Origin: Methanobacteriota archaeon
Lineage (GTDB): Archaea > Thermoplasmatota > E2 > DHVEG-1
Length of the DNA stretch: 64,000 bases
Direction of reading: 5' to 3'
Assembly (NCBI GenBank): GCA_963769885.1
Contig: CAVYNH010000006.1
Location: forward strand, 640,001 to 704,000
Shown: piece by piece, positions 27,235 through 45,796 of the stretch
How the letters are laid out: each line of letters opens with the position of its first letter
How positions within the stretch are numbered: position 1 is the first letter of the stretch
Position numbers and translations under genes: made by a program
Notes under the pieces: generated by a model
What the model saw: only the letters and a program-made list of their open reading frames with translations
The model's database searches: none
Told to the model about the DNA's origin: nothing

Positions 27235-27242
27235 TTTTTAGT

Positions 27243-28662: not shown

Positions 28663-28704
28663 TTCCTATAAAATTCTGCCCTTTTTCATATAAACAAATT
28701 CAAT

Positions 28705-28734: not shown

Positions 28735-28918
28735 ATTACATTGACCCCTACATTTTTGTAATAATATGATACTATTCATATTTTGTAGAAGTAATTTTTT
28801 TTTTATGTCGATTGGCTATTTTTCCAGTTGTCTTCACAATAGGGATGAAACAATAAATACCTCTACTTTTTTTTAAAATACAAAAAGTTTATTAATTTGT
28901 AGAGGTATATTGATAATC

Positions 28919-29824
28919 ATGGTGTTTGTGAAAAAGAAAGTCGTCCAGGGGAAATCCTACTATTATCTCGAGCACAGCTATCGGAAGGATGGAAAAGTCC
29001 ACAAACTCACAAAATATCTTGGAACGACACTACCCCCCTCTCTCGACCACGAAAAAGAGACGTTCCTGGTCAGTCACTATCAAGAGATCTGGTACCCCCT
29101 TTTCGAGATTATTAAGAAAAACTATACGTCCGAGCAGGTAAAACAACCGCGGGATATTGCGAAAAAAGAAATGGAGCGTTTCACCACCATGTTCACCTAT
29201 ACGACGAACCGTATCGAAGGATCAGCCCTGACCCTGCGCGAAACAGCGGAACTCCTCGAACATGGTTTATCTCCCCGGCATAGGCCACTGAGTGATGTGA
29301 AAGAAGCGGAGGCGCATAAAGCCGTCTTTAACGCGATGCTTACCTATGATCACGAGCTGAGCCTTTCAACGGTTTTGCACTGGCATAAAAACCTTTTTTC
29401 CCAGACCAAAGCTTCCGACGCCGGTCGCATCCGCACGTACCAAGTCGGCATCTCAGGTAGTAGATACGAACCACCTCTCCCGATAGAGCTTGAGTTCCTC
29501 CTCCATGAGTTCTTTCACTGGTACCATAAAAACAAACACACCATGCATCCGGTTCATCTTGCAGCACTCGTTCACTTACGGTTTGTCAGCATCCATCCTT
29601 TTGGAGACGGGAACGGACGCCTGTCTCGACTTCTGATGAACTATGTTTTGCACAAGTATGGATATCCCATGCTCATCATCGATTACAACCAACGGCATAG
29701 CTATTACACAGCGCTTGAACGTAGTCACCTCACGAAGGATGAGAGCATCTTTGTCCAGTGGTTTTTCAAACGCTATTGCAAGGAATACAGAAGGTTTTTA
29801 CAGGAAAAAAGAAAAGTCAAATAA
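28919..29824 (+). CDS. Fic family protein
   Basis: HPFGDGNGRLSR catalytic motif; TNRIEGS inhibitory-helix-like motif. Confidence 0.93.
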   Translation: MVFVKKKVVQGKSYYYLEHSYRKDGKVHKLTKYLGTTLPPSLDHEKETFLVSHYQEIWYPLFEIIKKNYTSEQVKQPRDIAKKEMERFTTMFTYTTNRIEGSALTLRETAELLEHGLSPRHRPLSDVKEAEAHKAVFNAMLTYDHELSLSTVLHWHKNLFSQTKASDAGRIRTYQVGISGSRYEPPLPIELEFLLHEFFHWYHKNKHTMHPVHLAALVHLRFVSIHPFGDGNGRLSRLLMNYVLHKYGYPMLIIDYNQRHSYYTALERSHLTKDESIFVQWFFKRYCKEYRRFLQEKRKVK

Positions 29825-29838
29825 CTGCTGCCTATGCG

Positions 29839-29868
29839 GTACCAGAGATGGCCACACTTACGGGGTAC
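29839..29868 (+). repeat. Cassette site L6
   Basis: GTACCAGAGA TGGCCACACT TACGGGGTAC (GTACC...GGTAC dyad) between convergent stops. Confidence 0.7.
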
Positions 29869-29901
29869 TTGAGATAGCGAAATCGACTGGCAGAACAACT
29901 T

Positions 29902-31098
29902 TCAGCGTAAAAAAATGGGGAAAACGAAGCATAGAAAAACGCACGCCTTCCCAGTAATTGTTTCATTCGCAGCGGTCACGGTAAGTCTGGTCAGGCCAAA
30001 CCCAACAACCTTGTCGTTCACCTGGACATCGCCCCATGCCGGAATCGTCTCATGAAACGGTTTTTCCTTGGGGAACACAAAGCCAGTCACTGTCATCGTT
30101 CCGTTGATATTAATTGGCATTCCACCGTTGTTATGGATGGTTGCGGTGATGCCAAGGCCTCCCTCGATGCTGATCGTGATATTGTACGGGATGGCGAAGG
30201 ACCGGTAGTGTGGTACTTCGCGGTTCCCGGCGTTGTCGACAGAGTAAAACATGAGATGATGATCGCCGGGTTCACTGACTTGGAAAGGATGGGTATAGTT
30301 GGTCACCGGGCCGCCGTCCAATGAGTAGACGGTGTAGGCTACTCCGGAATAATTATCGAATGCGGTGAGGATGACTGTTATGGTATTGGTCCCGTGCAGT
30401 TGGCACGTCGTGACTGGGGGTACGGTGTCGTTTTCTGTGATATGGACTTCAAGATTCCAGTTGCCCCAAATCCCCTGCGCCAGAAGCTCAGTCCAGTAGG
30501 TCAGCCAGGCCAAGTCGCCCTTCGTGGGGGTGCACGTATTTTCATCGTAGCCGCCGGGGTAGGTGCCGACCGGTGCGTCCCAGCCGACACCGACCCAGAC
30601 CGTATCATTCTCCGTGAAAGGATAAGGGTCTGTCAGGTTGAAGTAGAAATAGTCATTGATGACATCGCAGAAGCCGGAGGCGACCATCGTCGTGTTCTCT
30701 GTAGGGCTGGGCGGGTGATCGACGCCGGTGTACATCCAGGCGGTATAGTTTTCCTCGACGCAATATTCATCGGGTTGGGTCGGGCAGCCGTGCATGATTT
30801 TAATCTTGTCAAAAGCTCCGTGTAAACCTGCAAGTTCGGTTGGCGTGAATTTGATGATTTCATATAACGGTATTTCAAAACCTTTTGCCCATCCAATCGC
30901 GTTCTCACAGGTGCCGTCATCATAATGCAGGTAATAATCAGTTGAGGATGGCGCTGCAGTACCTGCATGGAGCCAGACGCCGGTTTCGTATGGTTCTGCC
31001 ACAGTGCAGAGAGTGTTGTTGGAGTTGATTGCCACAGCTGCTGGGATTGTCGCGAAAAGTAAAAGAACGATGACGGTACCAGCTGTTTCCTTTTTCAT
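29902..31098 (-). CDS. Secreted protein with Ig-like domain
   Basis: Signal peptide; DTVPPVT...DNYSGVAYTVYSLDGG...FYSVDNAGNRE Ig-like module. Confidence 0.78.
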   Translation of the reverse strand: MKKETAGTVIVLLLFATIPAAVAINSNNTLCTVAEPYETGVWLHAGTAAPSSTDYYLHYDDGTCENAIGWAKGFEIPLYEIIKFTPTELAGLHGAFDKIKIMHGCPTQPDEYCVEENYTAWMYTGVDHPPSPTENTTMVASGFCDVINDYFYFNLTDPYPFTENDTVWVGVGWDAPVGTYPGGYDENTCTPTKGDLAWLTYWTELLAQGIWGNWNLEVHITENDTVPPVTTCQLHGTNTITVILTAFDNYSGVAYTVYSLDGGPVTNYTHPFQVSEPGDHHLMFYSVDNAGNREVPHYRSFAIPYNITISIEGGLGITATIHNNGGMPININGTMTVTGFVFPKEKPFHETIPAWGDVQVNDKVVGFGLTRLTVTAANETITGKACVFLCFVFPIFLR

Positions 31099-31283
31099 TG
31101 AACTCCCTCTTTTCCCAACAAAATCATCGTCGAGACGTGATATAAATATTTCTATTGTCAAAGAAGGTTATGTGGGATTTTTTTAGATATTATTTTCCTT
31201 TAGGGAAAAATAAAGTAATTCTCTGATTTTCCCGAATCTAAAAAAGGTTTACAATCAATTTTTTTTTAACTACTAACCAGAGG

Positions 31284-31313
31284 GCAGCCTACACGGTCAA
31301 GATAAGATGGAAA
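31284..31313 (+). repeat. Cassette site L7
   Basis: GCAGCCTACA CGGTCAAGAT AAGATGGAAA; shares CCTACACGGTCAA with L9. Confidence 0.75.
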
Positions 31314-31337
31314 TGAGCAGTTTTCGTAATCGTGCAT

Positions 31338-32429
31338 CTAGTTCAAATCAATCTTATATGGCTTCATCAATGGAAACCGGTCTGAGCCAATTATTGCGTT
31401 CGATATCTTGAAGGGTAAGAATCCAATCCCGTCATGGTTGTAATCCACGATCTGTGGATGTTTTAATCCGGGATAGTCATCCCAATAGTTTCCAATGCAG
31501 TGCCCAAGTGAGAATTTCCACCAAAAATTACAACATTCATCGTATGCATTGTCAGCGTTTCCTATGAAATTATTGCAATAGAAAAGATTGTAATTTGAGG
31601 GAGTTTGGTATACCAATGAGATAAAGAGATACACACCCCAGTACGAATTGTTAGTGATATTATTGCAACAGATCGTATTCTCATTGGACTGGTAAAACCA
31701 TAAGCCTACTTGGTTATTCGTTATTTCATTATTTCTAATGATGTTGTGGTAGTCACCAGCATAAAATTCAATGCCCGCACTTTGATTTGAGATATGATTT
31801 TTGCCTATGAGGTTGTTGTCGGCACCACGGAGCAGCAGTACTCCTTCACCAGCATCTTTGAAAATATTCCCTGTGATTGTATTATGGTCTACCCTTCCGA
31901 TGACAATGCAGACTCCATCCTGAATCCCCCCTGCCCTGAATGTATTATTTATGACGAAAGTGAACGATGCTTGAATATAAATTCCGCATCCATCGTAAAT
32001 GAAATTTGTTAGGGCATTTTGTGAGATGGTACAGTTGTGGCCGCTGACGACGATGCCATATCCGTTGTGACGTGCTAGGTCGCAGGTAAAACCAGAGATG
32101 AGAACATGGTCCGCGGTGATGGTGACGATGTTCGCCTTCTGAGTAATACTCTTAAGTATTGTGCTGGTTCTATCTTGCCCTATAAGATTTATTGTCTTAT
32201 TAATCGTCAGGATCTCGGTGTACGTTCCGGCATATACAAAGACGGTATCTCCGGCTGAAGCATTATCGATTGCTGCCTGGATTGAGGAATAGTTGTTTGG
32301 TCCTACTCCGCCGACATATAATGTGATTCCTGTCATCACAAATCTATCTATCTCTGGAGATAGTGCTGATGTGTGGTAGATGCACGGTGTTAATAGAAGT
32401 ATGATGGCTACCATTTGTAAGGTTTTCAT
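31338..32429 (-). CDS. Secreted NosD/CASH beta-helix protein (cassette cargo)
   Basis: LYVGGVGPNNYSSIQ, GNYWDDY, DRFPLM. Confidence 0.88.
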   Translation of the reverse strand: MKTLQMVAIILLLTPCIYHTSALSPEIDRFVMTGITLYVGGVGPNNYSSIQAAIDNASAGDTVFVYAGTYTEILTINKTINLIGQDRTSTILKSITQKANIVTITADHVLISGFTCDLARHNGYGIVVSGHNCTISQNALTNFIYDGCGIYIQASFTFVINNTFRAGGIQDGVCIVIGRVDHNTITGNIFKDAGEGVLLLRGADNNLIGKNHISNQSAGIEFYAGDYHNIIRNNEITNNQVGLWFYQSNENTICCNNITNNSYWGVYLFISLVYQTPSNYNLFYCNNFIGNADNAYDECCNFWWKFSLGHCIGNYWDDYPGLKHPQIVDYNHDGIGFLPFKISNAIIGSDRFPLMKPYKIDLN

Positions 32430-32546
32430 GTGAATCCTTTTCCTGCCATGTGTTAACAATAAGCACTTAAAGTATCTTTCTATTGATTTTAAAAGTAAGA
32501 ATATCTAGTTGCACTCAAAAAAGCCAAAAAACTAACCACTAATGAA

Positions 32547-32576
32547 GTACCTTCTAGGGTCAATCCTAGAAGAATT
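32547..32576 (+). repeat. Cassette site L8 (best dyad)
   Basis: GTAC CTTCTAGG GTCAAT CCTAGAAG AATT: perfect 8-bp inverted repeat around 6 bp; abuts the RelE stop codon. Confidence 0.85.
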
Positions 32577-32861
32577 CTATTCTACTCTCGAATAACCTTG
32601 TTCGCGTTTCATGAGATTGATAACTTTAACTTCTTTATTTTCGATAAGATAAATAATCCTGTATTCACCTACTCGAAGACGGTATTTCTTCGGATGTGTG
32701 TCTACTAACATTTTGATATCACATCCTGCTCGAGCTGTACGAGGATCTTCTTTCAGTCCTAGTAGGCTTATTCTGACATTTTTTTGCAGCTGTTCTGGCA
32801 GTTCATGGAATGCTTTTTGAAACGTTCGTGAAACCAGAACGACGTACGTCATCTGGTTCAC
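32577..32861 (-). CDS. Type II toxin, RelE/ParE family
   Basis: YRLRVGEYRIIY; 4-bp overlap with the upstream antitoxin. Confidence 0.9.
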   Translation of the reverse strand: MNQMTYVVLVSRTFQKAFHELPEQLQKNVRISLLGLKEDPRTARAGCDIKMLVDTHPKKYRLRVGEYRIIYLIENKEVKVINLMKREQGYSRVE

Positions 32862-33043
32862 AACTCATCGAGCGAAATGAATTCGTCCTCGGCAAGAATC
32901 TTGTTCCAGGAATCATCCAATTTTTTCCAGGCGAATCTCTTGATTAATTTCTTAATAATCGAATCGTAGGTTTCGCCTTTTGTCCCCAGGTCCTGCAAGG
33001 CTTTTTTTGTTTCGTTGGTGATTGCAATGGTTGTGTTTCCCAT
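32858..33043 (-). CDS. Antitoxin (small RHH-like, archaeal type)
   Basis: TTIAI..ETK..L...G.KGETYDSII..LI; acidic tail FISLDEL. Confidence 0.85.
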   Translation of the reverse strand: MGNTTIAITNETKKALQDLGTKGETYDSIIKKLIKRFAWKKLDDSWNKILAEDEFISLDEL

Positions 33044-33132
33044 ACAGACACCTTTTCTTTATAGTAATTATAATCATTATGTCTATTTATAATTTACCCT
33101 TTAAAATCTTCATAATAGCTAATAACTACAGG

Positions 33133-33162
33133 GTACCCTACACGGTCAAAGCTAGGTGAATT
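33133..33162 (+). repeat. Cassette site L9 (recombinase-proximal)
   Basis: GTACCCTACA CGGTCAAAGC TAGGTGAATT. Confidence 0.85.
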
Positions 33163-33319
33163 TATTTTAAAGATCTTCAAAGATAATGATGGAGCCTATC
33201 GGATCTATATTGGTATACCTATCGCCAAGGCTGCTCATTTTGAAAATAAAGAAAAGGTGAGATTTGATTATTACCCTGGGAAAAAAAGGTTAGTAATAAG
33301 GAAAATAACAGAATTATAA
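33143..33319 (+). pseudogene. Start-less AbrB/MazE-like reading frame beginning inside site L9
   Basis: RSKLGEFILKIFKDNDGAYRIYIGIPIAKAAHFENKEKVRFDYYPGKKRLVIRKITEL; in-frame TAG at 33116 and no start codon near the 5' end. Confidence 0.55.
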
Positions 33320-33388
33320 GAAGAAAAGACTACTTTTATTCTACTCTCTACAAAAACATTTATAATATATTTTGATATACTTTATTGC

Positions 33389-33691
33389 ATGAGCGATGAT
33401 GAATTTAAAGAAATCATCATTTCAAAATTAGATCGAATTGCTAATTTGTTGGAGATGAATGAAAAAAGAGAAATAGAAAATTTAAAAGTCCGATTGCTTG
33501 GACGGTCTAAAATTAAAAAAGAAATTTATGATCTTATAAACGGAGAAAGAACAGTACAAGAAATAGCCAATCTATTGAAAATTGCTCAACCAAATATAAG
33601 TAAAGCAATTGCTGACCTTGTGGATGGAAATCTTATCGGAAAAAAGACCAAAGGGAAATTTGTTATTTATTACAAAAAGTATGAAGGTTGA
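33389..33691 (+). CDS. ArsR-like winged-helix protein
   Basis: RTVQEIANLLKIAQPNISKAIADL..GNLI. Confidence 0.85.
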   Translation: MSDDEFKEIIISKLDRIANLLEMNEKREIENLKVRLLGRSKIKKEIYDLINGERTVQEIANLLKIAQPNISKAIADLVDGNLIGKKTKGKFVIYYKKYEG

Positions 33692-33696
33692 AAAAA

Positions 33697-33989
33697 TGAA
33701 TGATTTAGTTCTTTCAGAGGAAAAGGCAGATACGATAATTGCATTATTGAAATTAATAGCTGGCCAAAATATCAAGGAAATTAAAGAAAAACGAGAACAT
33801 TTACTTAGCGTCCCTAAAAAGAACTCTATTTTAGACGCGTGTGATGGAACAAAGGAATTGAATCAAATAGCCAAAAAAATAGGTGTATCTTATGAATATG
33901 TCCGGTTGACGGTTGCAGAATTAGAGAATGCAGGTTTAATAATTTTTATCAGGAGTGGAAAAAAGAATCTACCAAAGAAGGTGATATGA
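33697..33989 (+). CDS. Winged-helix protein
   Basis: CDGTKELNQIAKKIGVSYEYVRLTVAELENAGLI; AAGGT SD before ATG 33697. Confidence 0.8.
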
Positions 33990-34204
33990 TTTCAGAAAAA
34001 GAAGATCCGATACTATTGGAATTAAGAAAAATAACAAACAGACTTGATGTTCTAATCGCATTCAACGCTATGCAAACAAATAGACCTGATTCAGACAAGA
34101 TAAAACTATTAAAAAAATTTGGACTTGGCTATGATGAGATACAAAATACATTATCCGTCTCACCCTCAACAATATCCAAAGTTCAAAAGGGGAAAGTGAA
34201 ATGA
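33986..34204 (+). CDS. Small HTH protein
   Basis: LKKFGLGYDEIQNTLSVSPSTISK; ATGA overlaps at both ends. Confidence 0.78.
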   Translation: MISEKEDPILLELRKITNRLDVLIAFNAMQTNRPDSDKIKLLKKFGLGYDEIQNTLSVSPSTISKVQKGKVK

Positions 34205-34482
34205 ACGATAACAAGAATGAGCCAGCCGAGGAAAACGAAATATTAAGCAGACTAGATGTAATCATTTATCTATTATTAAAAGAGCAAAAACAATTGCCTA
34301 CTTCCAAGAAAAATATGGAAGAGCTTGTTAAAATGCTGAAGGGATTGGGAATTGAAGATTATAAATCTATTGCAAAAATTATCAATGCAAATCCTGGATC
34401 TGTGGCAAATATCCTTACCCGATTAAAAGGAAGTAAGAAAGTGAATAAAAATGTCCGAGAGAATAGATTCAAGAATCCTTGA
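34201..34482 (+). CDS. Small HTH protein
   Basis: LKGLGIEDYKSIAKIINANPGSVANILTRL. Confidence 0.78.
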   Translation: MNDNKNEPAEENEILSRLDVIIYLLLKEQKQLPTSKKNMEELVKMLKGLGIEDYKSIAKIINANPGSVANILTRLKGSKKVNKNVRENRFKNP

Positions 34483-35200
34483 AAGAATAAAAGCTTGCCC
34501 TAAGATAAAAATATCTATTGCGGCCGTAAAAAATGAAATTTCTGAGATTAGAAGAGATAATCCGGGAGTTAGTTTAAATGCCGCAGCATGCGAATTTGCA
34601 AAAAGAAGAGGAGTCAATTTGATGAGGTATTTAGGAGATACAGATAGAACCACCTTATCATACATACGAGAAAGCCCCCAGCATACAATTGCGAAGGAAG
34701 AAAATAAAATAAGATCTATAAAAGTAAAACAGAATATTCCTACGGATGTTCCATACTTAACATCTGCCGATATATCAAATGCAGAAAAAATGTCTGTAAC
34801 TTATATTATTCTATATTGTTTTGAAAACTCCGTGAGAAGATTCATTATCGAACAATTGGAAAAAGCATATGGACCCAATTGGTGGGAAGATAAAATACAG
34901 GATAAAATAAAAAAAGAAGCTGATATTAATAGGAACCAAGAAAAAGACAAGAGATGGCATGCAACTCGAGGAGCTCATCCAATATATTATTTGACAATGA
35001 ACAGTTTAAGAAAAATAATTACTGATCAATGGCCTTTGCTGAAAAAAGTAATTAGAGAAGATCAAACATGGATCACAAGCAGATTGAATGAAATTACAGA
35101 TTCTAGAAACATAATAGCCCATCATAATCCCTTACCAAAAAGGGAAGTTGAAAGAATAATTCTCTATTTTGATGATTGGAAAAAACAAATGAAAATATAG
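34451..35200 (+). CDS. Swt1-like HEPN-domain protein (putative RNase)
   Basis: YIILYCFENSVRRFI...YGPNWW and R-x4-H motif RNIIAH. Confidence 0.85.
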   Translation: MSERIDSRILERIKACPKIKISIAAVKNEISEIRRDNPGVSLNAAACEFAKRRGVNLMRYLGDTDRTTLSYIRESPQHTIAKEENKIRSIKVKQNIPTDVPYLTSADISNAEKMSVTYIILYCFENSVRRFIIEQLEKAYGPNWWEDKIQDKIKKEADINRNQEKDKRWHATRGAHPIYYLTMNSLRKIITDQWPLLKKVIREDQTWITSRLNEITDSRNIIAHHNPLPKREVERIILYFDDWKKQMKI

Positions 35201-35205
35201 AATTT

Positions 35206-36048
35206 TTAGATGTCTATAGTATCCGTCATTATTTCGTATTTACAATTCGTGCAACCAACCCGAATATGAACAGTATCAGGAGGCTCCTCATAGCCACCAC
35301 CTGAATAACGCTGTGTTTCCTTTATATGGCCACCACACGCTGGGCAAATTGAATCTTTTAATAAGGCATCTTCCCAAGCATTTATTTTTGAAATGACTTC
35401 TATAAATTTTGTTAATTTTTCTAAATCAGAATGATCTAAATCAGTTATTCTATGAATTTCTTTTATTCTCTTTTCAATAATTTTTTTTAAGGAGGGAATT
35501 TCAGAATAAATATCATCTTTCACTATTGGTGCATAGACATATTTTGCCACGTAGGGTGTTTCAAGTCCATAATTTGAGAGTATAATCTCCGATTGACTTA
35601 GGTAAAAATCAGTGATTCTCTTAAAATAATCAATGAAGTTAAAACCTTTAGAGCTCCTATAATATCTTACACCTGCCTTTAGAATCCACTCTTTGAATAA
35701 AGGAGCCTGCTGCCGGATATCCACTAGATCCTGTCCATCTGGAGAGAAGAAATCATCATGTTCTATTTTCTCTCGAATGCAATTAATCTTATTTATCAGT
35801 TGATTCCATTTTTCAATTTGATCAATGGTAGATAGTGGTCTATTAATTTGATTCCATCGTGTCTTTAAATGGGCTATTTTTAATGATTCAATATCATACC
35901 CCACGTGATTTGTGCCGACGACCAAAAGAAGCTTCATAAAATAATCCCATAGAAATTTGGCTGAAGCACGCCGCTCATCTGCACTTTCCTTTGGTGTTTT
36001 ATCATAAGATTCTAAGATGCTTCTTAAATATTCTTCTAGGTCAACCAT
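35206..36048 (-). CDS. Hypothetical protein with HEPN-like motif and C-terminal zinc ribbon
   Basis: IREKIEHDD (R-x4-H) in a helical N-terminal region; CPAC...CTNC. Confidence 0.65.
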   Translation of the reverse strand: MVDLEEYLRSILESYDKTPKESADERRASAKFLWDYFMKLLLVVGTNHVGYDIESLKIAHLKTRWNQINRPLSTIDQIEKWNQLINKINCIREKIEHDDFFSPDGQDLVDIRQQAPLFKEWILKAGVRYYRSSKGFNFIDYFKRITDFYLSQSEIILSNYGLETPYVAKYVYAPIVKDDIYSEIPSLKKIIEKRIKEIHRITDLDHSDLEKLTKFIEVISKINAWEDALLKDSICPACGGHIKETQRYSGGGYEEPPDTVHIRVGCTNCKYEIMTDTIDI

Positions 36049-36523
36049 TAGTATTATCAATACTAATAGCCTATTTTAAGCTGAGTTTCATAGAGACCGT
36101 CAACCAGGCTAATTTTATTGGGTCAGCTTGATGTACGTCCAGATAAGAGTTGAGCAATTACGGCCTGAACCAAATCCATGTTATAAAATAAATTAGTATT
36201 ATTTTGCTTAAATACTTTATACTTTAAAGAAATTTTAGAATATACAAAGCCCCCTCAAGTTCAGGAAAATCGTTACAGGAGAAGTTGAATACGGCGTTGT
36301 CTCAAACCTCAAAGGCTCCTCCTGAAGCCCTTTCATGACAAGGAAAATGGTCTAAGGAGAGGTCGAATACTTTTGAGACAAAGCCATTGAATACTTTCGA
36401 TGACCTCCTCCAGGAGTATATAAGGAGAGAAATCATTCATTTACTCCAAGAAAAAATAGGTCAAAATGACCCCCAGATGGTTTGAGCATCCAGGGGTCTG
36501 AGACCATAATAGAGGTGTCTATT

Positions 36524-37504
36524 ATGATCCCGAACGGGAACAATACCAATAGTGGTAATAAGATTTTGGTGCAGGCCAGTCTCGAGCAGATAGTAATCGA
36601 AAAGCCATTGATCACACTACAACCTAAACCGGTCATGCCTTCTATCGTGCCGACTCCTTCTCCGAAGAATGAAACTGACAACGACAAACTCTTGGACAAG
36701 TTCAACCGCTATATGCGTGAGAACAACTACAGCAAGAGCACCATCTACATGTATACGAAGGTCGTCGGCCAGATGCTTGCCATGAAAGATTCGTTCTCCA
36801 TGACGGAGGATGATCTCAGCGACGTTCGGCTCTATCTTGTTGAACGCTATGCCCAGAATGGGAACCGGGCGAGGTTCGCTGCTATCAATGCTTTCTGCAA
36901 GCATATCCTCAAACGAAAAGACCTACATCTCAAGATCCCCAGTCCCGTCATCAAGAACAAAGACGTGTTCACCAACGAGCAGATTGACGCTATCCTTGCC
37001 ATTGCGAAAACGAAGAATAAACTCGCTTATGCCGTCCTTCAGACTTTGTACCATTGCGGACTACGTAAGATGGAGTTGTGCAATCTGAATCTTGCTGACC
37101 TTAATTTCGACACCATGGAATTGAAACTGAACAACACCAAGACAGGCAACGCGATTGTCTCCATGACCACCGCCGTTGCCAAGTCTCTGCAGGACTATAT
37201 TCAAAATGAACGACCTAAGAAAGAAGATGAACAAGCGGTATTCCTCAGTAAGAAAGGTGTGCGAATCGGTGAATGGACTGTCCGAGGATACCTCAAGGAA
37301 TGTGGGAAAGAAGCCGGGATTAAATCCCGGATGTATCCACACATGCTACGAGCATCATGCATTACACATCTTTTAAACAAAGGAGTGAATCCACTAACCG
37401 TTCAGCTCCATGCAAGGCATAGGAACTTCATGACAACCATGAGATATAATCGGCCAACTCAGCAGCAGATGAAAACGGATATCGAACGAATTTTCTCGAA
37501 GTAA
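36524..37504 (+). CDS. Tyrosine recombinase/integrase (XerC/D-like)
   Basis: SAM-like domain (NYSKSTIYMY), GLRKMEL (R), TKT (K), HMLR (H-x-x-R), ARH, TMRY (Y); GAGGTG SD at 36512. Confidence 0.95.
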   Translation: MIPNGNNTNSGNKILVQASLEQIVIEKPLITLQPKPVMPSIVPTPSPKNETDNDKLLDKFNRYMRENNYSKSTIYMYTKVVGQMLAMKDSFSMTEDDLSDVRLYLVERYAQNGNRARFAAINAFCKHILKRKDLHLKIPSPVIKNKDVFTNEQIDAILAIAKTKNKLAYAVLQTLYHCGLRKMELCNLNLADLNFDTMELKLNNTKTGNAIVSMTTAVAKSLQDYIQNERPKKEDEQAVFLSKKGVRIGEWTVRGYLKECGKEAGIKSRMYPHMLRASCITHLLNKGVNPLTVQLHARHRNFMTTMRYNRPTQQQMKTDIERIFSK

Positions 37505-37568
37505 TGTGATGATTTTCAAGTTGGGAGTATATTTTTAAATAACGATCAGTTGTATATTTTGGATACTT

Positions 37569-38459
37569 ATGCCAATATTTGACGATGTCGGCAAAGCGCT
37601 TAAAAGAACTAGCGATGTAATTAAAAAAACAACCGATGGGATAGCGAAAAATATTGCTGCAAGTCAAGAAAATGCAAGGAGAAAACGGGAGATTTTAAAT
37701 AGATTCGTTATGGATGATTTGAAAAAAATATGCAAGGAATATGGAATTGGCGAGCCAGATCCATACGAAGAATTTTTTGGAGAAAGAACAAAGAAGAAAA
37801 TAACACGAAACGATTACATAGATTATATTGAAGAGAGGCTAGATTTGAAACACATCGAAGACTTTTGTAATAACCATAGAATAAAGAGGCAAATTGAAGT
37901 TGAATCTGGAGTCGAGGCACAAAAAGACCATCCTTCTCGACCAGAGCCTCCAATAGTAAATGAATTACGGAATGAAGAAAACAAAATCCAAGAAAAGACT
38001 TCAATAGTGACGACAGCAAATCAGAAACCACAGGGAGAAACTCACGATATCCTTAATACAATAAAGGAACAGTTCAAACCAGAGCCCTGCATGAACGAAA
38101 AAGAACTACAGGGTCAGCTAATGATCTGGTTCAATATTATGTATCCCAATCGGGTCGTGCGAGAGGTCTCCACGATGGCTGGAAAAGTCGATTTTGCGAT
38201 TGATAAAAATAGACTTGGACTCGAGGTAAAAATAGCTTTTGACAAGGGGACCTTGAGAAACCTAGTAGGTCAAATTCTCGCTTATAAAAAATATTTCAAT
38301 GAAGTAGGTATAATTTTGATGGATGTCAATGATATGCCAAATTCGATAATTACTGAATACATTAATGAATATAGAAATCAAGGCGTCGAAACCATAGTAA
38401 TTCAAGGGCAAATTAGGAAAAAGAAAGGAAGACCCAGAGAAGTCCGTGTAAAATATTAA
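37569..38459 (+). CDS. Protein with C-terminal PD-(D/E)xK nuclease-like domain
   Basis: EKELQ..L...REV....GKVDFAI....GLEVK. Confidence 0.7.
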   Translation: MPIFDDVGKALKRTSDVIKKTTDGIAKNIAASQENARRKREILNRFVMDDLKKICKEYGIGEPDPYEEFFGERTKKKITRNDYIDYIEERLDLKHIEDFCNNHRIKRQIEVESGVEAQKDHPSRPEPPIVNELRNEENKIQEKTSIVTTANQKPQGETHDILNTIKEQFKPEPCMNEKELQGQLMIWFNIMYPNRVVREVSTMAGKVDFAIDKNRLGLEVKIAFDKGTLRNLVGQILAYKKYFNEVGIILMDVNDMPNSIITEYINEYRNQGVETIVIQGQIRKKKGRPREVRVKY

Positions 38460-38503
38460 ATATCATTCAGGTTTCTTCTATTAATCATAATCTCAATTGA
38501 GAT

Positions 38504-38533
38504 ATTTATCTTAGCAATACTACTACTTGGTAA
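38504..38533 (-). repeat. Cassette site R1 (AGTAT core class)
   Basis: Minus strand TTACCAAGTA GTAGTATTGC TAAGATAAAT. Confidence 0.65.
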
Positions 38534-38612
38534 CTTATTAAAATGATTGATTTACTTATTAGAATGGTTTATTAAAAGATAAAAGATGTATTTGAGCTGG
38601 AGTTGTAAGACT

Positions 38613-39497
38613 ATGAAGAAAGCGGCATTTTTCTTACCTGTCTTTGTTATTTTATCTATCATCTTGTTAACTGGATGTACTGAAACAACTGGGCCTCTCT
38701 TAATGTCGATTACCAAATTCACAGCTGAACCTAATATTATAGCACAAGGCCAAACAGCTAACCTTAGTTGGCAAACATTCGGTGCTGTACAAGTAACGAT
38801 TGACCATGGCATCGGGAATGTGAGCATTTATGGATCAAGAATCATTGCTCCAACTAATACTACAACATACACTTTAACAGCATCAAATATTACTCATACA
38901 TTAACAGCCACAGTTCAAATAATCGTTCATTCAAATGAACAGACCGGAATATTAGTAAATTCATTCACAGTTAATCCGCGTATCGTACATCAAGGTCAGA
39001 CTGCAAACCTCACATGGAACATCACTGGAGCTAGTGTCGTCCAAATTGATCATGGTATCGGCAACATTAGCCTCTCTGGTACAAGAATTATTATGCCTTT
39101 AGAAACAACTACGTATACTATTACCTGCTCAAATGCAGTGAACACAGTAACGGCTACAACTCAAATTCTCGTCGAAGAAACAGAATCACCTCCTCCTGCC
39201 ACTACGCCATCAATTGCGTGCACTTTAGATAGTAGCAACAATAAAATTACTATAGCTAGCGCTGACCCCAACATTCAATGGAGCAATCTAAGGATTACAA
39301 ATAGTAGTACTCCCGCCTGTCATTGGGCAATATATGCAAATGGCGGGGTAACTAACCAATCTACAAATGTCCTTCCCTCCGGGGAGGTTATCGCTGGAGA
39401 TTATTTGAAAATCTGGGGCGTAACTGGAAATGTGCAGTTTACATGGGCTTACGTGCCAACGAATTCGTTAATTGGAGTTTGGACGATAAACGTATAA
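38613..39497 (+). CDS. Lipoprotein with two tandem Ig-like repeats
   Basis: LTGC lipobox; duplicated F...P.I..QGQTANL.W...GA..V.IDHGIGN.S..G.RII.P..TTTYT. Confidence 0.82.
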   Translation: MKKAAFFLPVFVILSIILLTGCTETTGPLLMSITKFTAEPNIIAQGQTANLSWQTFGAVQVTIDHGIGNVSIYGSRIIAPTNTTTYTLTASNITHTLTATVQIIVHSNEQTGILVNSFTVNPRIVHQGQTANLTWNITGASVVQIDHGIGNISLSGTRIIMPLETTTYTITCSNAVNTVTATTQILVEETESPPPATTPSIACTLDSSNNKITIASADPNIQWSNLRITNSSTPACHWAIYANGGVTNQSTNVLPSGEVIAGDYLKIWGVTGNVQFTWAYVPTNSLIGVWTINV

Positions 39498-39502
39498 CCT
39501 AA

Positions 39503-39532
39503 AAATCTCCTAGCAATTCCAATATAAAAACC
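39503..39532 (-). repeat. Cassette site R2
   Basis: Minus strand GGTTTTTATA TTGGAATTGC TAGGAGATTT, 5 bp after the upstream stop. Confidence 0.75.
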
Positions 39533-39623
39533 GTTTGGATAGCAATCATTATAAGAATATAACTCTTTTAGCAATTAATTATACATTAAAAAAGTAAAGA
39601 AAATTAAATTAAATGGAAACCGT

Positions 39624-40988
39624 ATGAAAAAAAGAATAATTCTCATTTCAATTATTTCTATTTCACTTTTCTTGAATATTTTATTTTCCGGTTGTCTACA
39701 AAACAATACTATAACTACCGAAAATAATGGACAAAATTCAAAAAATGCTAATCAAGATAGACAAGAACAACCAGAGCCACAACAAACATACAAAGATTCA
39801 GACAGAGATGGTTATTACGATTACCAGGATAGTTTTCCAAATGACCCATCTGAATGGAAAGACAGCGATCATGATGGTGTCGGAGATAATTCAGATAAGT
39901 ATCCCTACGATTATGATAATGATGGATATGCAGACTCAGTTGATATCAAGAAAAACGGTGATGCTGCCATCAAAATATCCTTAAAAAAATTCAATGTCGA
40001 GGACGAATTGGATTTTCTTTTTGTGAGTGTTGAAGTTTATTTTGAGATATACATTAACGGAAGAATGGAAGCAAGAATCGACGATAATGGCGAATCATGG
40101 CATGCAACTGTTGGAGAAACATATTCAATAGGAGAAAGCGTCATCTATAACATAGATGATGACCAGAGGTACACGAATGTTAGAATCATCATGTGGGATG
40201 ACGATTACCTACTAGAAAATGATCCAATTGATATTGATGGAACCGGTACTGATGCAAAAGCATTAGACATCGTTTTTGACGCAATTACAGGTACTTGGAC
40301 AGGGGATGATAATGACGGCTTTACAGATGGTAGTGATGATGGAAGTGCAAATTATGATGACGACGATGGTAGTTTGTGGTATAGTCTTCAATTAGTTGAG
40401 GCTCAATATAACAAAATCTATCATTGGACATTTGATTGGAATCAATGGGAGTTACGCATTAATATTCCACCTACCAGCTATGCCTATTACAGACATTCAA
40501 ACGTCGATAGATCTCCTATTTTACCATCACAGATGGCTGCCTTTGTCACTTCTGATGATTCCATTATTAAAGACATCGCCCAACGATTACAGTCACATTG
40601 CAACGAAGCTGGGTATAGTTCATCTAAAACGGTTAATTTCATATTGAGTTTTGTTCAAAGTTTAGAATACACTTATGATAATGCTTCTACACCAGCAAAT
40701 GATTATTGGCGTTTTCCCGTGGAGACATTAATGGATGAAACTGGAGATTGCGAAGATACCTCCGTTCTCTTCGCTGCTATTATGGAAGCAGTTGGATTTG
40801 ATGCTGTTTTAATACATCTACCAGGCCATCTAGCAGTTGGAATATCATGTAATGAGGGATCTGGTTCGTATTATGATTACAATGGAAAATCGTATTATTA
40901 TTGCGAAACAACTGGCACAGGGTGGAATATGGGAAATATTCCATCTAATTTTGAGGAGCAATCAGCAAATATTATAGATGTTGATTAA
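39624..40988 (+). CDS. Lipoprotein with Ca-binding repeats and C-terminal transglutaminase-like domain
   Basis: FSGC lipobox; DSDRDGYYD..D.FPNDP repeats; PVETL....GDCED, GHLAVG, YYCETT. Confidence 0.85.
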   Translation: MKKRIILISIISISLFLNILFSGCLQNNTITTENNGQNSKNANQDRQEQPEPQQTYKDSDRDGYYDYQDSFPNDPSEWKDSDHDGVGDNSDKYPYDYDNDGYADSVDIKKNGDAAIKISLKKFNVEDELDFLFVSVEVYFEIYINGRMEARIDDNGESWHATVGETYSIGESVIYNIDDDQRYTNVRIIMWDDDYLLENDPIDIDGTGTDAKALDIVFDAITGTWTGDDNDGFTDGSDDGSANYDDDDGSLWYSLQLVEAQYNKIYHWTFDWNQWELRINIPPTSYAYYRHSNVDRSPILPSQMAAFVTSDDSIIKDIAQRLQSHCNEAGYSSSKTVNFILSFVQSLEYTYDNASTPANDYWRFPVETLMDETGDCEDTSVLFAAIMEAVGFDAVLIHLPGHLAVGISCNEGSGSYYDYNGKSYYYCETTGTGWNMGNIPSNFEEQSANIIDVD

Positions 40989-41021
40989 ATAATTTGAAGA
41001 AACTAATCCTTGGAGGAGTAA

Positions 41022-41051
41022 TTGTCCTCTAGCAATTCCAATACCTGTTAT
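41022..41051 (-). repeat. Cassette site R3
   Basis: Minus strand ATAACAGGTA TTGGAATTGC TAGAGGACAA, between convergent stops. Confidence 0.75.
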
Positions 41052-41085
41052 TTTACCTTGAAAGCTCAGTATAGGAAAAGAAAAA

Positions 41086-42000
41086 CTACCACGTCCACGT
41101 GTAATCGTACGGTTGTGGTGCAGGGCGCCAGTCAATCCCGGACTTCAAGGGGAAGATGATGGTTGGAAGGCGATGCAGAAACGGGATATCGCTCCTCCAT
41201 CCGATCCAGTAGTAATTCTTGTGCCAGTAGGACGGCGCACCGCCGCGCGCGGGCACCAAGAAGTTATTCTCGATAATCTTGCTACCCGCACCGGCCCCGG
41301 AGAGGCTGATAGCAGTGGCACCGCACAAATCGCACGGCCAGGAGAAGTTGTTGTGTGCTACCAGCGTGTTCTGAGCACCGGCGGTGATCAGTAAATCGTA
41401 CCCGAAGTGGTTGTCGAAGTGATTCTGCCGAATGGTGTTGTCACAGCCCCCTGAAAGAAGAATTCCCGCTTCATACAACTCAATGAGTTCGAAATAGTTA
41501 TGAAAGATTGACGAATTAGCAACGTTGTTGAAAGTAATGGTACTCATGGTGGTGTAAAGGTCGCAATTCGAAATATTGACATCCGAAACGCCGTCAGCGA
41601 TGATGGCATAGGAGGTGATGATCTCGCCACCTTCGTACGTGATGCGAAAGCCATCTACTTTGACGGAATCGCGGATGATGTGAATGGCGGGCCGTTGCCA
41701 ATCGCATGCTTGCAGGGATACATCGTGGTGGTCTGCAATGAGCGAAATGGATTTGTTGACAACAACATTTTCCCAGTAGAAGGGTTCGTGACGGTACACG
41801 TACACGGTGTCGCCATCAAGGGAGGCGTTGATCGCATCTTGAATGGCTGTGTAGTTCCCAGGGCCGCTCCCACCAACGTACAGTGTGGCCCCAGTGTACG
41901 TCGTGGGTGATGGTAGGGATGCTTCGTTCGCAAAGGCGAAGACAGGAGGCATCAAGGCGAGAACGCCGATCATTCCAAAGACTACTATTTTATTTCTCAT
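41086..42000 (-). CDS. Secreted NosD/CASH beta-helix protein (cassette cargo)
   Basis: Start MRNKIVV after GGAGG; LYVGGSGPGNY; IDWRPAPQPY. Confidence 0.86.
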   Translation of the reverse strand: MRNKIVVFGMIGVLALMPPVFAFANEASLPSPTTYTGATLYVGGSGPGNYTAIQDAINASLDGDTVYVYRHEPFYWENVVVNKSISLIADHHDVSLQACDWQRPAIHIIRDSVKVDGFRITYEGGEIITSYAIIADGVSDVNISNCDLYTTMSTITFNNVANSSIFHNYFELIELYEAGILLSGGCDNTIRQNHFDNHFGYDLLITAGAQNTLVAHNNFSWPCDLCGATAISLSGAGAGSKIIENNFLVPARGGAPSYWHKNYYWIGWRSDIPFLHRLPTIIFPLKSGIDWRPAPQPYDYTWTW

Positions 42001-42025
42001 GAATTTTCCTCCGTTATCGATCAAG

Positions 42026-43312
42026 TCAAATCGTGTACGGTTGTCGAGCAGGATGCCAGTCGACATTGACCCATGGAATATTGAAAGGAATGGATTGGAA
42101 GGGATTGAAATAGTAGTTGTAGGTGAAGCTTGTTCCAAGAATGACCTTTGGGAAGGCTCGAGGCATGGTCCAATAGTTATGCCACCACAAGGTCCGCGTG
42201 TACGCGAAGCGGGCGTTCCTGATATTGTGCATGAAGTTGTTTTCCTCGACGATGTTTGGTTTCAAGGCAAAGTAGTGCAGATTGTCCCCAGCAATTGAGA
42301 TGCCGAGGGCATTGTGTTCAATCGAGTTTCGTTCAATGGTATTTCGCTGGCAGGTGGCAAGCTTGATTCCGATGGAACAATTCGTAATGGAATTGTGGAT
42401 GACGGTGTTTGCATCTGACGAGAGGAGACTAATACCAACCGAGACGGTGGAGATATTGAGGTCGCGCACGGTCATATAATGACAGGAAATAAGGAAGAGT
42501 TGTCCAACATCATTGCTAGCATCGATGGTCTTGTTTGCTTCTCCATTTAACATCAGAAAAGACTTGCCGTTGACGTTATTTTTGCTAAAGGAATTATTGT
42601 ACGCATCCGTATCTTCGAGGTTGAACCCACACTGGATGCAGGTGTTTCCTTCAAAGGTGTTCATCCGGGAGTAGACAATGTTGATCCCTATCAACCCACC
42701 ATGGGAGATGATGGTGTTGTTGGCGATGACATCATCCTGATCGTAAATGACGTTGATGGCTGTACTTGCCTTTTCTTCCAGGATGAAGGTGTTTCCGATC
42801 ACCGTGCTATTCCGTTGACCACGGAAGTCGAGATTATTATCCCACTTGTTAAAGTCATCGTAGTACACGTACATCGTGTTATTGTCGAAATGGTTAAACG
42901 AGCCAGCATAGATTCCCATGGAATTCTTAACAATATTATTGTCAAGGGTGATACTGCTCCTCATGTTCGAATAGAAGAACCCATCAATCGTAAATCCCGT
43001 AATTCGAATCTTGTCCTCGAATACTCCAAAAGAACTAACTTCGGTCGTGGTTCTGTTCTCCCCGACGATGGTCAGTTGTTTGGTGATATCAGCCTCCCCG
43101 TACGGTGAACTATCGTCATAGACAAAGATGAAGTCCCCATCATATGCGTCACGAACTGCCGCATTGATCGTGGTATAGTTACCAGGTCCGCTGCCACCAA
43201 CGTACAAGATATTTTCTCTTCCGCCTTTTCTTTGTCCTAAGTCGCGCGCAGTAACGGAAACGCAAAAGCCAATAACAATGAAGATTGCACCAAGAATGAA
43301 CAGCTTGTTCAT
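42026..43312 (-). CDS. Secreted NosD/CASH beta-helix protein (cassette cargo)
   Basis: LYVGGSGPGNYTTI; HNYW; VDWHPARQPY. Confidence 0.86.
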   Translation of the reverse strand: MNKLFILGAIFIVIGFCVSVTARDLGQRKGGRENILYVGGSGPGNYTTINAAVRDAYDGDFIFVYDDSSPYGEADITKQLTIVGENRTTTEVSSFGVFEDKIRITGFTIDGFFYSNMRSSITLDNNIVKNSMGIYAGSFNHFDNNTMYVYYDDFNKWDNNLDFRGQRNSTVIGNTFILEEKASTAINVIYDQDDVIANNTIISHGGLIGINIVYSRMNTFEGNTCIQCGFNLEDTDAYNNSFSKNNVNGKSFLMLNGEANKTIDASNDVGQLFLISCHYMTVRDLNISTVSVGISLLSSDANTVIHNSITNCSIGIKLATCQRNTIERNSIEHNALGISIAGDNLHYFALKPNIVEENNFMHNIRNARFAYTRTLWWHNYWTMPRAFPKVILGTSFTYNYYFNPFQSIPFNIPWVNVDWHPARQPYTI

Positions 43313-43421
43313 GAATTGCCTCCATATATAGTAAAAGTTATCAGTTATTTAAATATTCACATGAAAATCACATAGCCTTGTTCTTACAGGGTATGAGATA
43401 TTCTTCAAGAAAAAGTGCTTT

Positions 43422-43451
43422 CTTTCCCCTAGCAATTCCACTGTAAGGTAC
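43422..43451 (-). repeat. Cassette site R4
   Basis: Minus strand GTACCTTACA GTGGAATTGC TAGGGGAAAG; arms nearly identical to L9. Confidence 0.85.
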
Positions 43452-43461
43452 TATAGTGTGA

Positions 43462-43491
43462 AAATCATCTAGCGATACTGCTATAAGATAA
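43462..43491 (-). repeat. Cassette site R4b (AGTAT core class)
   Basis: Minus strand TTATCTTATA GCAGTATCGC TAGATGATTT, 40 bp from R4. Confidence 0.65.
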
Positions 43492-43540
43492 ATCACACTT
43501 TTCTAATAAATTATAAATAGCTTCTATCCAATTTCTTTTC

Positions 43541-43927
43541 ATGGGTAGGATAGTCAAAGATATAATTGTCGATGGTAAAATTAGACAAGCGATCTTTGAT
43601 AGTGGTTCAGTCGTCAGTTACGTGACGGAAAAAGCTTTACCTGAATCAGCCGTTTGTATTAATGTATCCCCCATAACATCTCGAGTAGCGGGTTCCACTC
43701 ATCAACTAACAAAGCGCTGCTTCATCCCAAGCAAACTCGATGGAAAGGATTTCGATTTTGATGCATTTGTCATCGATAAACTCGGTAAAGTCCAAGAAAA
43801 AGGAGACGTAGATCTGGATTTTTTAATAGGCGCAGCAACGATGGAAGAATGGTCCATCAGTATAAATCCAAAGGAGCAAACTGTTGACCTTCGCGGATTG
43901 AAAAGACGAGAATTTCTCTCTTTCTAA
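43541..43927 (+). CDS. Retropepsin-like (clan AA) aspartyl protease
   Basis: AIFDSGS and FLIGA motifs in a 128-aa single lobe. Confidence 0.82.
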   Translation: MGRIVKDIIVDGKIRQAIFDSGSVVSYVTEKALPESAVCINVSPITSRVAGSTHQLTKRCFIPSKLDGKDFDFDAFVIDKLGKVQEKGDVDLDFLIGAATMEEWSISINPKEQTVDLRGLKRREFLSF

Positions 43928-44013
43928 ATTTCAAATCTATTATCTTCCAAGAAAAGAAATCCTTCCGATGGAAATGGAAGAAAAAGACATAAAATTACAA
44001 TGAAATACTATTA

Positions 44014-44043
44014 AATTTCCAGATTAATTCCACTATGAGGTAA
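44014..44043 (-). repeat. Cassette site R5 (distal end)
   Basis: Minus strand TTACCTCATA GTGGAATTAA TCTGGAAATT; 1 bp from the DUF2207 stop. Confidence 0.75.
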
Positions 44044-44044
44044 G

Positions 44045-45796
44045 TTATCTTCCTCCTGCGCCGCCGCCGCCAAACCCTCCGCCGCCACCGAAGCCGCCCC
44101 CATGTCCTCCTGCACCGGATGCCGCAGAAGTCATGACGGCGCGATTGACGCCATAAAACGACGCGTAAAACACCGGGACGAACGTTACCTCAGGGACGTT
44201 GATATTGAGTTTCTTCATAACCTTTGCAAGTTCCTTGCCGACACCAAGAGTCGTCCCATAAACGAGCCATTCCTTCCACACCGACAGGTCCTCAAGCCGA
44301 TATTGCTCCAGGTGCACCATATCCGCAAGAAACCGCCGGAAGGAATCCCACTCCTGCCTCTCCTTATAGTAGTCGTCTTTCCATCGCCCAAAGAGCGTCG
44401 GGGACGCCGCAGTCGCAATCACGGCTTGGACCGATAATATGAGCGAGTACGCCATGGCCGCGAACAACAGGGGATACACGCCTCCAAAGATACCGAACAA
44501 GATCAACGTGAGGATAAAGGACAAAACACCTATGCCAATGAAGACGGCGGGCAGTCTCCGTCCGCTCGTCATGAATTCTTTAGACAGCCTCGTGTCGGCT
44601 TTTCTGGTCAAGTACCGCATCTCGCGCTGGAGTGTCATAATCTGGGGCTGATTGTGCATGCCGGTGATCTCCGCTTCGAGCGCCGCTGTGGAAAACACGT
44701 TGTTTTTAGCCCATTTCGAAAGAAAAGACACGGCCCTTTGTTCATACTCGTCCAAGCCCTCGGCATGGTTGTTGATATGAATTTTAATGGTGCTTTCGTC
44801 CTCCGTTTCGATGGTGATGATCTTTCGCTGATGGAGGTCAAGCAACGTCGCGTAGAACCCGTTTGGGTTATAATCCTCGGCGCTTTTCACGAAGACTAAG
44901 TTCACAATCCATGGTTTTCGTTTCGCTGGGACGACGTTCAAGAATGTGGGGACGACAGAGCTTTTCTCCCGGCCTTTGAGAACATAGAGGACGAGGAGAA
45001 TGACGACAAAACCAACGACGAGGACGAGGAGCAGGTCAGTAAAAACAGACACTGCTCCATTTGCGAGCGTGTAGGCATCGTTGGCCGATACCGTCTTTTG
45101 GTACACCCCTGGCACGGTCCGGTGATAACCATAGGATATGTTATGTGAAAGGATCTCGACTTCGAGGAGACTGTTGGCAGGGCTCGCCCCGGTGATGGTG
45201 TACGTCGAGCCTGACTTCACGAGGTTCATCTGAGGGCGGGTGTAGATCGTGACGATGTCTCCAGAGGGGTCGTCTACCGTGATCTCAACGGATTTGTAGG
45301 CAATGTGGGTCGCGGCGAGCTTCAGGTTCAGGTGGTCGTACTGACCGTCGGACTCTACCGGTGGGGCGATGGTGTAGTTGATGCGAAGCGTGTAGATGCC
45401 TTCGTTGAAATGATCGGGGTTGTAGCATCCGATCTCGGAGTCGAAGGCCTTCGAAGCTATATCGGGGGCGGAGCTGAGCCAGACCCGCCCCGTGTAATCC
45501 TTGATATATGGTGAGTATGGGCAGGTCACGTTTGTGACCTCGATGTAGGGCTGAGAGGATGTCTGTTGATACGTGACGTTGTCCTCCCAATATCGGTAGA
45601 GCATCGTGTATCTGCCGCTCGCCTTGACGTTGTACTGGAAGGTCTCCTGCAGCCTGCCGTCGGGAGAGAGCGTCGCCTTGTAGCTGTTGACGACGAGGTC
45701 GCCTTCAAGTGGGAGGGCGTTGACGATGAGGATGCCGATGCCGGCGACGAGGACGACGACAGCCAGGACGATCGTCAGCTGACGCGGTTCGTTCAC
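44045..45796 (-). CDS. DUF2207 family membrane protein
   Basis: ATLLDL, W..F..FL, WKEWLVYG..LGV, Gly-rich tail GGGFGGGGAGGR; GTGA overlap with lemA. Confidence 0.88.
   Translation of the reverse strand: MNEPRQLTIVLAVVVLVAGIGILIVNALPLEGDLVVNSYKATLSPDGRLQETFQYNVKASGRYTMLYRYWEDNVTYQQTSSQPYIEVTNVTCPYSPYIKDYTGRVWLSSAPDIASKAFDSEIGCYNPDHFNEGIYTLRINYTIAPPVESDGQYDHLNLKLAATHIAYKSVEITVDDPSGDIVTIYTRPQMNLVKSGSTYTITGASPANSLLEVEILSHNISYGYHRTVPGVYQKTVSANDAYTLANGAVSVFTDLLLVLVVGFVVILLVLYVLKGREKSSVVPTFLNVVPAKRKPWIVNLVFVKSAEDYNPNGFYATLLDLHQRKIITIETEDESTIKIHINNHAEGLDEYEQRAVSFLSKWAKNNVFSTAALEAEITGMHNQPQIMTLQREMRYLTRKADTRLSKEFMTSGRRLPAVFIGIGVLSFILTLILFGIFGGVYPLLFAAMAYSLILSVQAVIATAASPTLFGRWKDDYYKERQEWDSFRRFLADMVHLEQYRLEDLSVWKEWLVYGTTLGVGKELAKVMKKLNINVPEVTFVPVFYASFYGVNRAVMTSAASGAGGHGGGFGGGGGFGGGGAGGR

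Follow-up and report, generated by a model that had tools for sequence, protein, structure and literature searches.

Can a single recombinase keep separate stores of genes on its two sides by means of sites that differ only in their spacers? This question is raised by a locus in a stretch of 64,000 nucleotides (the window, C6:640001-704000, within which positions are counted below) of the metagenome-assembled genome (MAG; 2.09 Mb, 92% complete) of an uncultured Thermoplasmatota-like archaeon. The GC content, ~0.55-0.60 in the flanks, drops to 0.30-0.42 at about 31000-44000 and is intermediate from about 22000. In this region a gene for a Xer-like tyrosine recombinase, P0001, lies between two arrays of ~30-bp elements, which the initial annotation had described as sites with the same arms and different cores, perhaps kept orthogonal by their spacer classes. 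The reading favoured here, which we give about an even chance of being correct and which was built by sequence comparison, takes the locus for a two-armed cassette platform that is fixed in the chromosome and has heterospecific spacer classes.

The recombinase and its sites

P0001 (326 aa, 36524-37504, + strand) was assigned by profile searches, PDB relatives and catalytic residues. It matched Pfam Phage_integrase at 4e-34 and an N-terminal SAM-like domain as well, and its top NCBIfam model was archaeal XerA, where its 135.7 bits fell short of the cut-off of 220. The integron-integrase models gave 69.7 bits (TIGR02249, cut-off 265) and 31.8 bits (NF011946, cut-off 435). Its PDB relatives were XerA, an XerC-like protein and XerD, IntI4 being aligned at residues 60-227 only. 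The catalytic set, as read from the sequence, is complete (Arg, Lys, His-x-x-Arg, His, Tyr; R-K-H-R-H-Y), in agreement with the earlier description of a single adjacent tyrosine recombinase. By these comparisons P0001 is classed as Xer-like and not as IntI.

The fifteen catalogued sites share one register, set by site L8, in which a 6-nt spacer is flanked by a 12-nt outer arm and a 12-nt inner arm. Nine of them, the L sites, lie on the + strand to the left of P0001, and six lie on the - strand to its right. The outer (GTACC) side points away from P0001 and the inner (TAG) side towards it in both arrays, and this orientation, which had been proposed before, held when it was checked on the catalogued sites. 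The spacers also fall into the classes first described. Class L, on the left, has a GTCAAA-like spacer preceded by G and variable at positions 5-6, with GCCACA (L6) and GTACAT (L2) as exceptions; class G has GGAATT, preceded by T, in R2, R3, R4 and R5; and class A has AGTATT in R1 and AGTATC in R4b. All nine L sites are intergenic, and sites are found 9-45 nt past stop codons or just before genes, leaving operons unbroken.

The outermost left site, L1 (22112-22141), had rank 4 of 4.17 million genome positions when left arm and spacer were scored in a leave-one-out manner, and its end is overlapped by L2 (22140-22169), which has an L-type left arm with the deviant spacer and had rank 23. These are followed by L3 (25829-25858; rank 7), by L4 (27243-27272), located 9 nt past the stop of a transglutaminase-like gene, by L5 (28705-28734), which has a good inner arm and stands after an AbiEi/AbiEii pair, and by L6 (29839-29868), a weak member of the class after a Fic gene with rank 202, marginal when taken alone. 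The upstream 34 nt of L7 (31284-31313) are 82% identical to the L9 flank, and L8 (32547-32576) has perfect 8-bp inverted arms with the 6-bp spacer between them. The site nearest P0001, L9 (33133-33162), has the best inner arm of class L and had rank 1. Over the same positions, L1, L3, L5 and L9 were thus in the top 8 and L2, L4 and L8 within about 25, with L6 and L7 marginal (about 170-200); a candidate L site at 24406 failed this scoring and was dropped. A loose arm pattern gave ten matches in the whole genome, six of them at this locus, and five of those six are catalogued sites. The sites are beyond chance.

On the right, the first site is R1 (38504-38533, class A), and it is followed by R2 (39503-39532) and R3 (41022-41051), both of class G. 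R4 (43422-43451), also of class G, has an outer arm of the L type (GTACC), as found when arms were tested across classes. R4b (43462-43491, class A) lies 10 nt from R4, and the terminal R5 (44014-44043, class G) has a degenerate inner arm and abuts the stop codon of a DUF2207 gene. Near-back-to-back pairs with different spacers were observed towards the outer ends of both arrays, L1/L2 at 22112-22169 and R4/R4b at 43422-43491; the former is outermost on the left, and only R5 lies beyond the latter on the right. An additional arm-like match was observed at 27177-27200, immediately before L4. An odd site at 36029-36058 (+ strand) consists of a reversed consensus inner arm, an L-like spacer and a degenerate arm, and is peculiar to this locus: attR-type L sites, with a reverse inner arm and an L spacer, were sought in the other loci described below, and only the one at 36029 in the window was found.

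To what extent the arms are the same in all classes was answered with matrices derived from one class and applied to another. A matrix made from the inner arms of right-side sites only scored L9 at p 2.4e-7, L8 at 1.7e-5 and L5 at 1.3e-4, and in three other loci the proximal L sites scored 8e-6 to 4e-5 with the same matrix. The larger comparison thus found the inner arm clearly shared across classes, with p 2e-7 to 1e-4. In the reverse direction, the outer-arm matrix derived from L sites scored R4 at p 1.7e-4 and R4b and R5 weakly, at p 0.005-0.008, and with the same L-derived matrix the GTACC arm was not shared by the right-side sites of other loci. The description of the sites as having the same arms and different cores therefore needs amending: the difference of cores and the sharing of the TAG arm stand, while the GTACC arm is clear on the right only in R4. 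The inner arm is common to all classes, and the GTACC arm is essentially a property of class L, found also in R4.

The two arrays also differ in which half of the site is conserved. Left sites conserve the outer arm, ~15 bases further upstream and the first four or five bases of the spacer, which bears out the earlier remark that conservation on the left is one-sided within the site. Their inner arms are variable except at the site nearest P0001, where the inner arm is strong in all four loci having an L site. In right sites the spacer and inner arm are conserved and the outer arms are variable.

Cassettes and related loci

The left cassettes, bounded by L sites, occupy 22170-33132 and hold two NosD-like genes, a 139-aa gene with a transglutaminase-like gene, AbiEi/AbiEii, Fic, an unknown 419-aa gene, a further NosD-like gene and a ParE-like toxin with its antitoxin. 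The right cassettes (37569-43927) hold genes for proteins of 296 and 303 aa, a transglutaminase-like gene, two NosD-like genes and a 128-aa gene. The modules are 0.6-3.7 kb in length with one or two genes apiece, and their content is of toxin-antitoxin, defence and surface-protein genes. The GC content of the left cassettes declines stepwise towards P0001, from 0.53 to 0.32, as would result if the newest cassettes were nearest P0001, having entered at the proximal site.

Between L9 and P0001 a module at 33389-36060 was observed with four small HTH proteins and a Swt1-like HEPN protein in one operon, on which a 284-aa gene of the - strand converges. A start-less frame of 57 aa (33146-33319) begins inside L9, its first ten or so codons being replaced by the site. 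A Pfam search of this frame gave no match; of 107 genomes in the family, 12 have intact homologues of 58-64 aa with their own promoter. The idea that one gene had been split by the left array into the 57-aa frame and a short frame at 22237 is not supported, as the homologues have N-termini unlike the 22237 frame and contain no L-type core.

Five loci were compared: this one, a locus with a paralogous recombinase on contig C4 (86% identical to P0001), the syntenic locus of a sister MAG, and two metagenomic loci. Every one of their 12 class L sites is on the left and on the + strand, and every one of their 15 sites of class A or G is on the right and on the - strand, with zero exceptions. Class A is always closer to the recombinase than class G, the G spacer is identical in 10/10 sites and the A spacer in 5/6. 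The tie of classes to side and strand, first seen at a single locus, was accordingly found to extend to loci with different cargo, and such conservation of spacer classes over five loci with unlike cargo is what functional heterospecific sites predict.

The cargo itself turns over. In the sister locus the recombinase is 87% identical in protein and the left flank 82% identical in DNA, the NosD-like cassettes alone are shared with this genome, and homology stops at R4 and R3. The cargo of locus L014, whose L site is 92% identical to L9 across 40 nt, includes restriction-modification genes, an SMC-like ATPase, an HD-domain protein and PIN, and that of this locus includes genes of the AbiE, Fic, ParE, HEPN, transglutaminase-like and NosD-like kinds; besides NosD-like paralogues and the sister orthologues, no cassette was found in common between the loci. 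Since cassettes turn over and homology ends at sites, the locus behaves as a fixed recombinase with fast-changing bounded modules. The low-GC island of the C4 copy spans exactly from an L site to a G site. An empty site for this copy was sought in the sister genome and none was recovered, the flanks there being non-contiguous and the contig breaking at tRNA-Arg. The sister locus has a decayed L site and, like this locus, a terminal site resembling R5. Left and right sites number 9 and 6 here, 1 and 2 at the C4 locus and 0-1 and 4 at the sister locus.

Further traces of the system were observed outside these loci. A broken third copy of the recombinase, a pseudogene of 66% identity with one stop codon, is located at C4:108884-109165 in a low-GC stretch (~C4:107000-117000), with a G-like site to its right (C4:114783, - strand); this stretch is probably a decayed locus. 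In other genomes of the family, the G spacer with inner arm gave 32 one-mismatch matches, as against 11 for the reversed control, including two on the same strand of G051:C15, and by such matches related arrays may exist that have no close recombinase homologue. One hit on a viral contig, a single 17-mer lacking the conserved block that lies upstream of the recombinase (see below), was discarded as a chance match.

Could the motifs be something other than recombination sites, such as binding or transcription signals between genes, or chance resemblances? No junction evidence was found, and inner-arm-like motifs also overlap the promoter region of the recombinase. However, such signals would not account for the arm-spacer-arm architecture with its perfect 8-6-8 palindrome at L8, the confinement of the motifs to recombinase loci genome-wide, the ending of homology between two genomes at sites, or the strictly fixed strand and side, and we consider this explanation very improbable.

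In the cassette platform favoured here, the ~30-bp elements would be core-type recombination sites of the adjacent Xer-like recombinase. Small circular modules, each with one or two genes and one site, would be inserted and excised through direct repeats having the same spacer, and probably the proximal left site, L9 in this locus, would be the main insertion point; one-site circles inserting there would reproduce the half-site pattern. For lox, FRT, lambda att and dif sites it is established that overlap identity decides partner choice. Since the overlaps of two sites have to match for a tyrosine recombinase, each spacer class should exchange only with its own class, and L and R sites, which are mutually inverted, would neither invert nor delete the recombinase gene. 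The sequences themselves show the sites with their classes and strict placement, and that cassettes turn over in related genomes. No recombination event was seen, and the orthogonality of the classes, the block on inversion, catalysis by P0001, the need for spacer identity and the point of insertion are inferred.

Several observations weigh against this proposal. No circle, alternative junction or polymorphism was seen in the one public run found to contain this DNA, which is shallow and kept as contigs; when this freshwater-sediment run (17% of sampled words) was mapped to 24501-44500, there were no joints and no informative loose ends, a result that counts neither for nor against exchange. 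Class L cannot obey a rule of strict 6-bp identity, its spacers being variable at positions 5-6, and the A and G spacers differ at two positions only and may cross-react. R4, with its L-type outer arm and G spacer, could be the product of a cross-class exchange. The cassette genes point both ways and seem to have their own promoters, unlike integron cassettes, and the loci in the comparison are related to one another and do not count as independent samples. Finally, inner arms facing inward from both sides are the geometry of a plain attL/attR pair too.

This last point leads to another reading, in which the L and right sites are attL and attR of one recombinase element with unlike overlaps, and L and R sites are partners instead of being orthogonal. 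Unlike overlaps can result if only one pair of strands is exchanged on integration and replication completes the reaction, as with CTX phage and other Xer-exploiting elements, or if the enzyme tolerates heterology, as in Tn916 or CTnDOT. The recombinase is Xer-like, the inner arms form inward-facing inverted repeats, and L9 and R4 have outer arms that are nearly inverted copies of each other; moreover, a single L and a single G site delimit the island on C4, and four loci conserve the proximal L site, in its spacer and inner arm, jointly with the recombinase unit. Set against this, the site numbers are unpaired at this, the C4 and the sister locus. Both spacers are constant across loci, with the right outer arms varying, which would not be so for coupling sequences derived from a target. 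Two genomes of the genus also have the locus in synteny, so that it has not moved over that timescale. We consider partner sites of this kind rather improbable, though a serious alternative.

The upstream block and relatives in tRNA genes

Where did such a locus come from? A conserved non-coding block directly upstream of P0001 (36388-36523, + strand) contains a TATA-like box, inner-arm-like motifs and two nested palindromes; the motifs overlap the TATA-like box, and one of the palindromes holds the L spacer. This block of ~130 bp was present in 28/28 of the loci found, even at 55% recombinase identity, and was observed to be more conserved than the recombinase protein itself. Among 197 genomes of the class it was found in 3, so that the family is patchy. 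The block may be an operator or an insertion site. Its first palindrome is mostly of one variant in loci at tRNA-Val and mostly of another in other loci, with exceptions. In most loci the block starts at the reverse complement of the A spacer, which hints only tentatively at an A-class site on its left edge, since in the window it is abutted by a 113-nt repeat and the sequence further to the left is semi-conserved in the distant subfamily too. The repeat (36286-36398), which has inverted ends, recurs at 82-89% identity in at least six further copies, spread over contigs C1, C6 and C7; two of these are adjacent, and the same insertion is present in the metagenomic locus L029. It looks MITE-like.

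The relatives at ~55% identity are integrative elements in tRNA-Val(TAC) or tRNA-Cys(GCA) genes (loci L017, L024, L025, L040, L043, L045 and L052). They cross over in the D-loop and replace the 5' portion of the tRNA, the displaced 5' fragment lying at the left end, and their cores are the same at both ends, as a direct repeat. Extra att copies are found on the left in L043 and on the right in L045. The G and A sites resemble the D-arm target of these relatives, and the close subfamily, to which the present locus belongs, looks like a derivative whose left and right sites no longer match. Such a mismatch would block excision of the recombinase gene, in line with the synteny between the two genomes of the genus.

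An origin from tRNA-targeting elements is also the basis of a further explanation, according to which the sites are scars of accretion: tandem integrations would have occurred on both sides and the integrases then been lost, the classes would be ancestral att types and not working orthogonal pools, and there would be little or no exchange now. Tandem integration is known in archaea, at tRNA genes (PMC8371274), the relatives at ~55% are classical tRNA-Val and tRNA-Cys elements, and two of them, L043 and L045, have duplicated att sites. Signs of decay fit as well, namely the decayed L site of the sister locus, the recombinase pseudogene at C4:108884-109165 and the poor inner arms of several L sites. 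What accretion does not explain is that each locus has one recombinase with integrase remnants absent between the sites, and that the modules measure no more than 0.6-3.7 kb and hold one or two genes each. Neither would independent accretion yield the L, A, G order in five loci with unrelated cargo, and the invariance of the G spacer (10/10) and near-invariance of the A spacer (5/6) point to selection. We regard accretion as unlikely, though it has to be reckoned with.

Two further features were observed in the window. One is an open frame of 1957 aa at 55335-61208, on the - strand in low-GC DNA; the other is a sequence of ~150 nt at 18067-18219 that is repeated on contigs C3 and C7, is conserved in the sister locus and is without an Rfam or tRNA match. 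Scans of the whole window for tRNA and Rfam families gave no match.

Comparison with known systems and possible significance

Is a platform with several spacer classes a variant of something already known? Integrons with IntI and attC have been described in archaea (Ghaly et al. 2022, PMC9668308). Like these, the present locus has a conserved recombinase beside an array of short cassettes bounded by sites, on a chromosome, with toxin-antitoxin genes among the content and with content that differs in relatives. Unlike them, it has a Xer-like recombinase far below the integron-integrase cut-offs, ~30-bp sites of arm, spacer and arm instead of folded attC sites of 57-141 bp with a GTTRRRY core, and mirror-oriented arrays with different spacers on both sides, with gene strands mixed. 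Of the integron features looked for, variable cassettes were present, but IntI with its additional domain, attC, and a one-sided array with co-oriented promoterless cassettes were not.

The dif modules of Acinetobacter plasmids carry resistance and toxin-antitoxin units between 28-bp pdif sites (PMC6449649, PMC13141974). The likeness lies in small accessory modules that are delimited by Xer-type sites and shuffled in content. Those sites alternate in orientation, they are served by host XerC/XerD encoded elsewhere, and they belong to bacterial plasmids, whereas here the sites of one array are direct repeats and a dedicated recombinase stands in the middle of the locus, on a chromosome; inversely oriented sites with host XerC/XerD, by which pdif modules would be recognized, were not found. 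With XerA/dif dimer resolution the locus shares the 6-bp spacer between inverted arms, as seen in L8, but P0001 does not look like a XerA orthologue acting at one dif site, since it scored below the cut-off, its family is patchy and there are two paralogous copies, a pseudogene and many sites.

The tRNA-targeting elements (PMC4383910, PMC8371274) are of the same recombinase family, and the relatives among them share the 130-bp block and have cargo on both sides. The present locus differs in having no tRNA in the window, unlike left and right spacers, mirror orientation and many sites, and attL/attR direct repeats with the same core and part of a tRNA, present in the seven relatives, are absent here. 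Nor is the locus a shufflon, as the sites are intergenic and direct within an array, and the inverted pairs, L with R, have unlike spacers.

The closest parallel in principle is with heterospecific lox and FRT sites, where one enzyme is used with several spacer variants and spacer identity decides pairing. Those lox and FRT variants are engineered, and in integrative elements of the IMEX type unlike overlaps serve to make the reaction one-way. As far as our searches of the literature went, no natural locus with two or three spacer classes around one recombinase was found described, and neither a review of archaeal tyrosine recombinases nor full-text searches yielded a system of this design. 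The locus may be an integron-like gene-capture system that has not been described previously. Going further, we tentatively suggest, as a possibility that we regard as somewhat doubtful, that it represents a second, independently evolved cassette-capture system of Archaea, in which a Xer-like integrase derived from tRNA-targeting elements would have become fixed by incompatible spacers and would maintain two or three orthogonal pools.

If the classes are orthogonal, a mobile integrase would have been domesticated into a stationary gene-capture platform by the incompatibility of its ends, and one enzyme would keep separate cassette stores of defence, toxin-antitoxin and surface-protein genes. 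Such a locus would be a natural counterpart of the engineered heterospecific lox sites, and the compact set of heterospecific sites with one small recombinase might be of use as a tool for genome engineering. It would also be a route to integron-like evolution in Archaea that does not pass through IntI, and would provide uncultured Thermoplasmatota with a mechanism for rapid turnover of their defence and surface genes.

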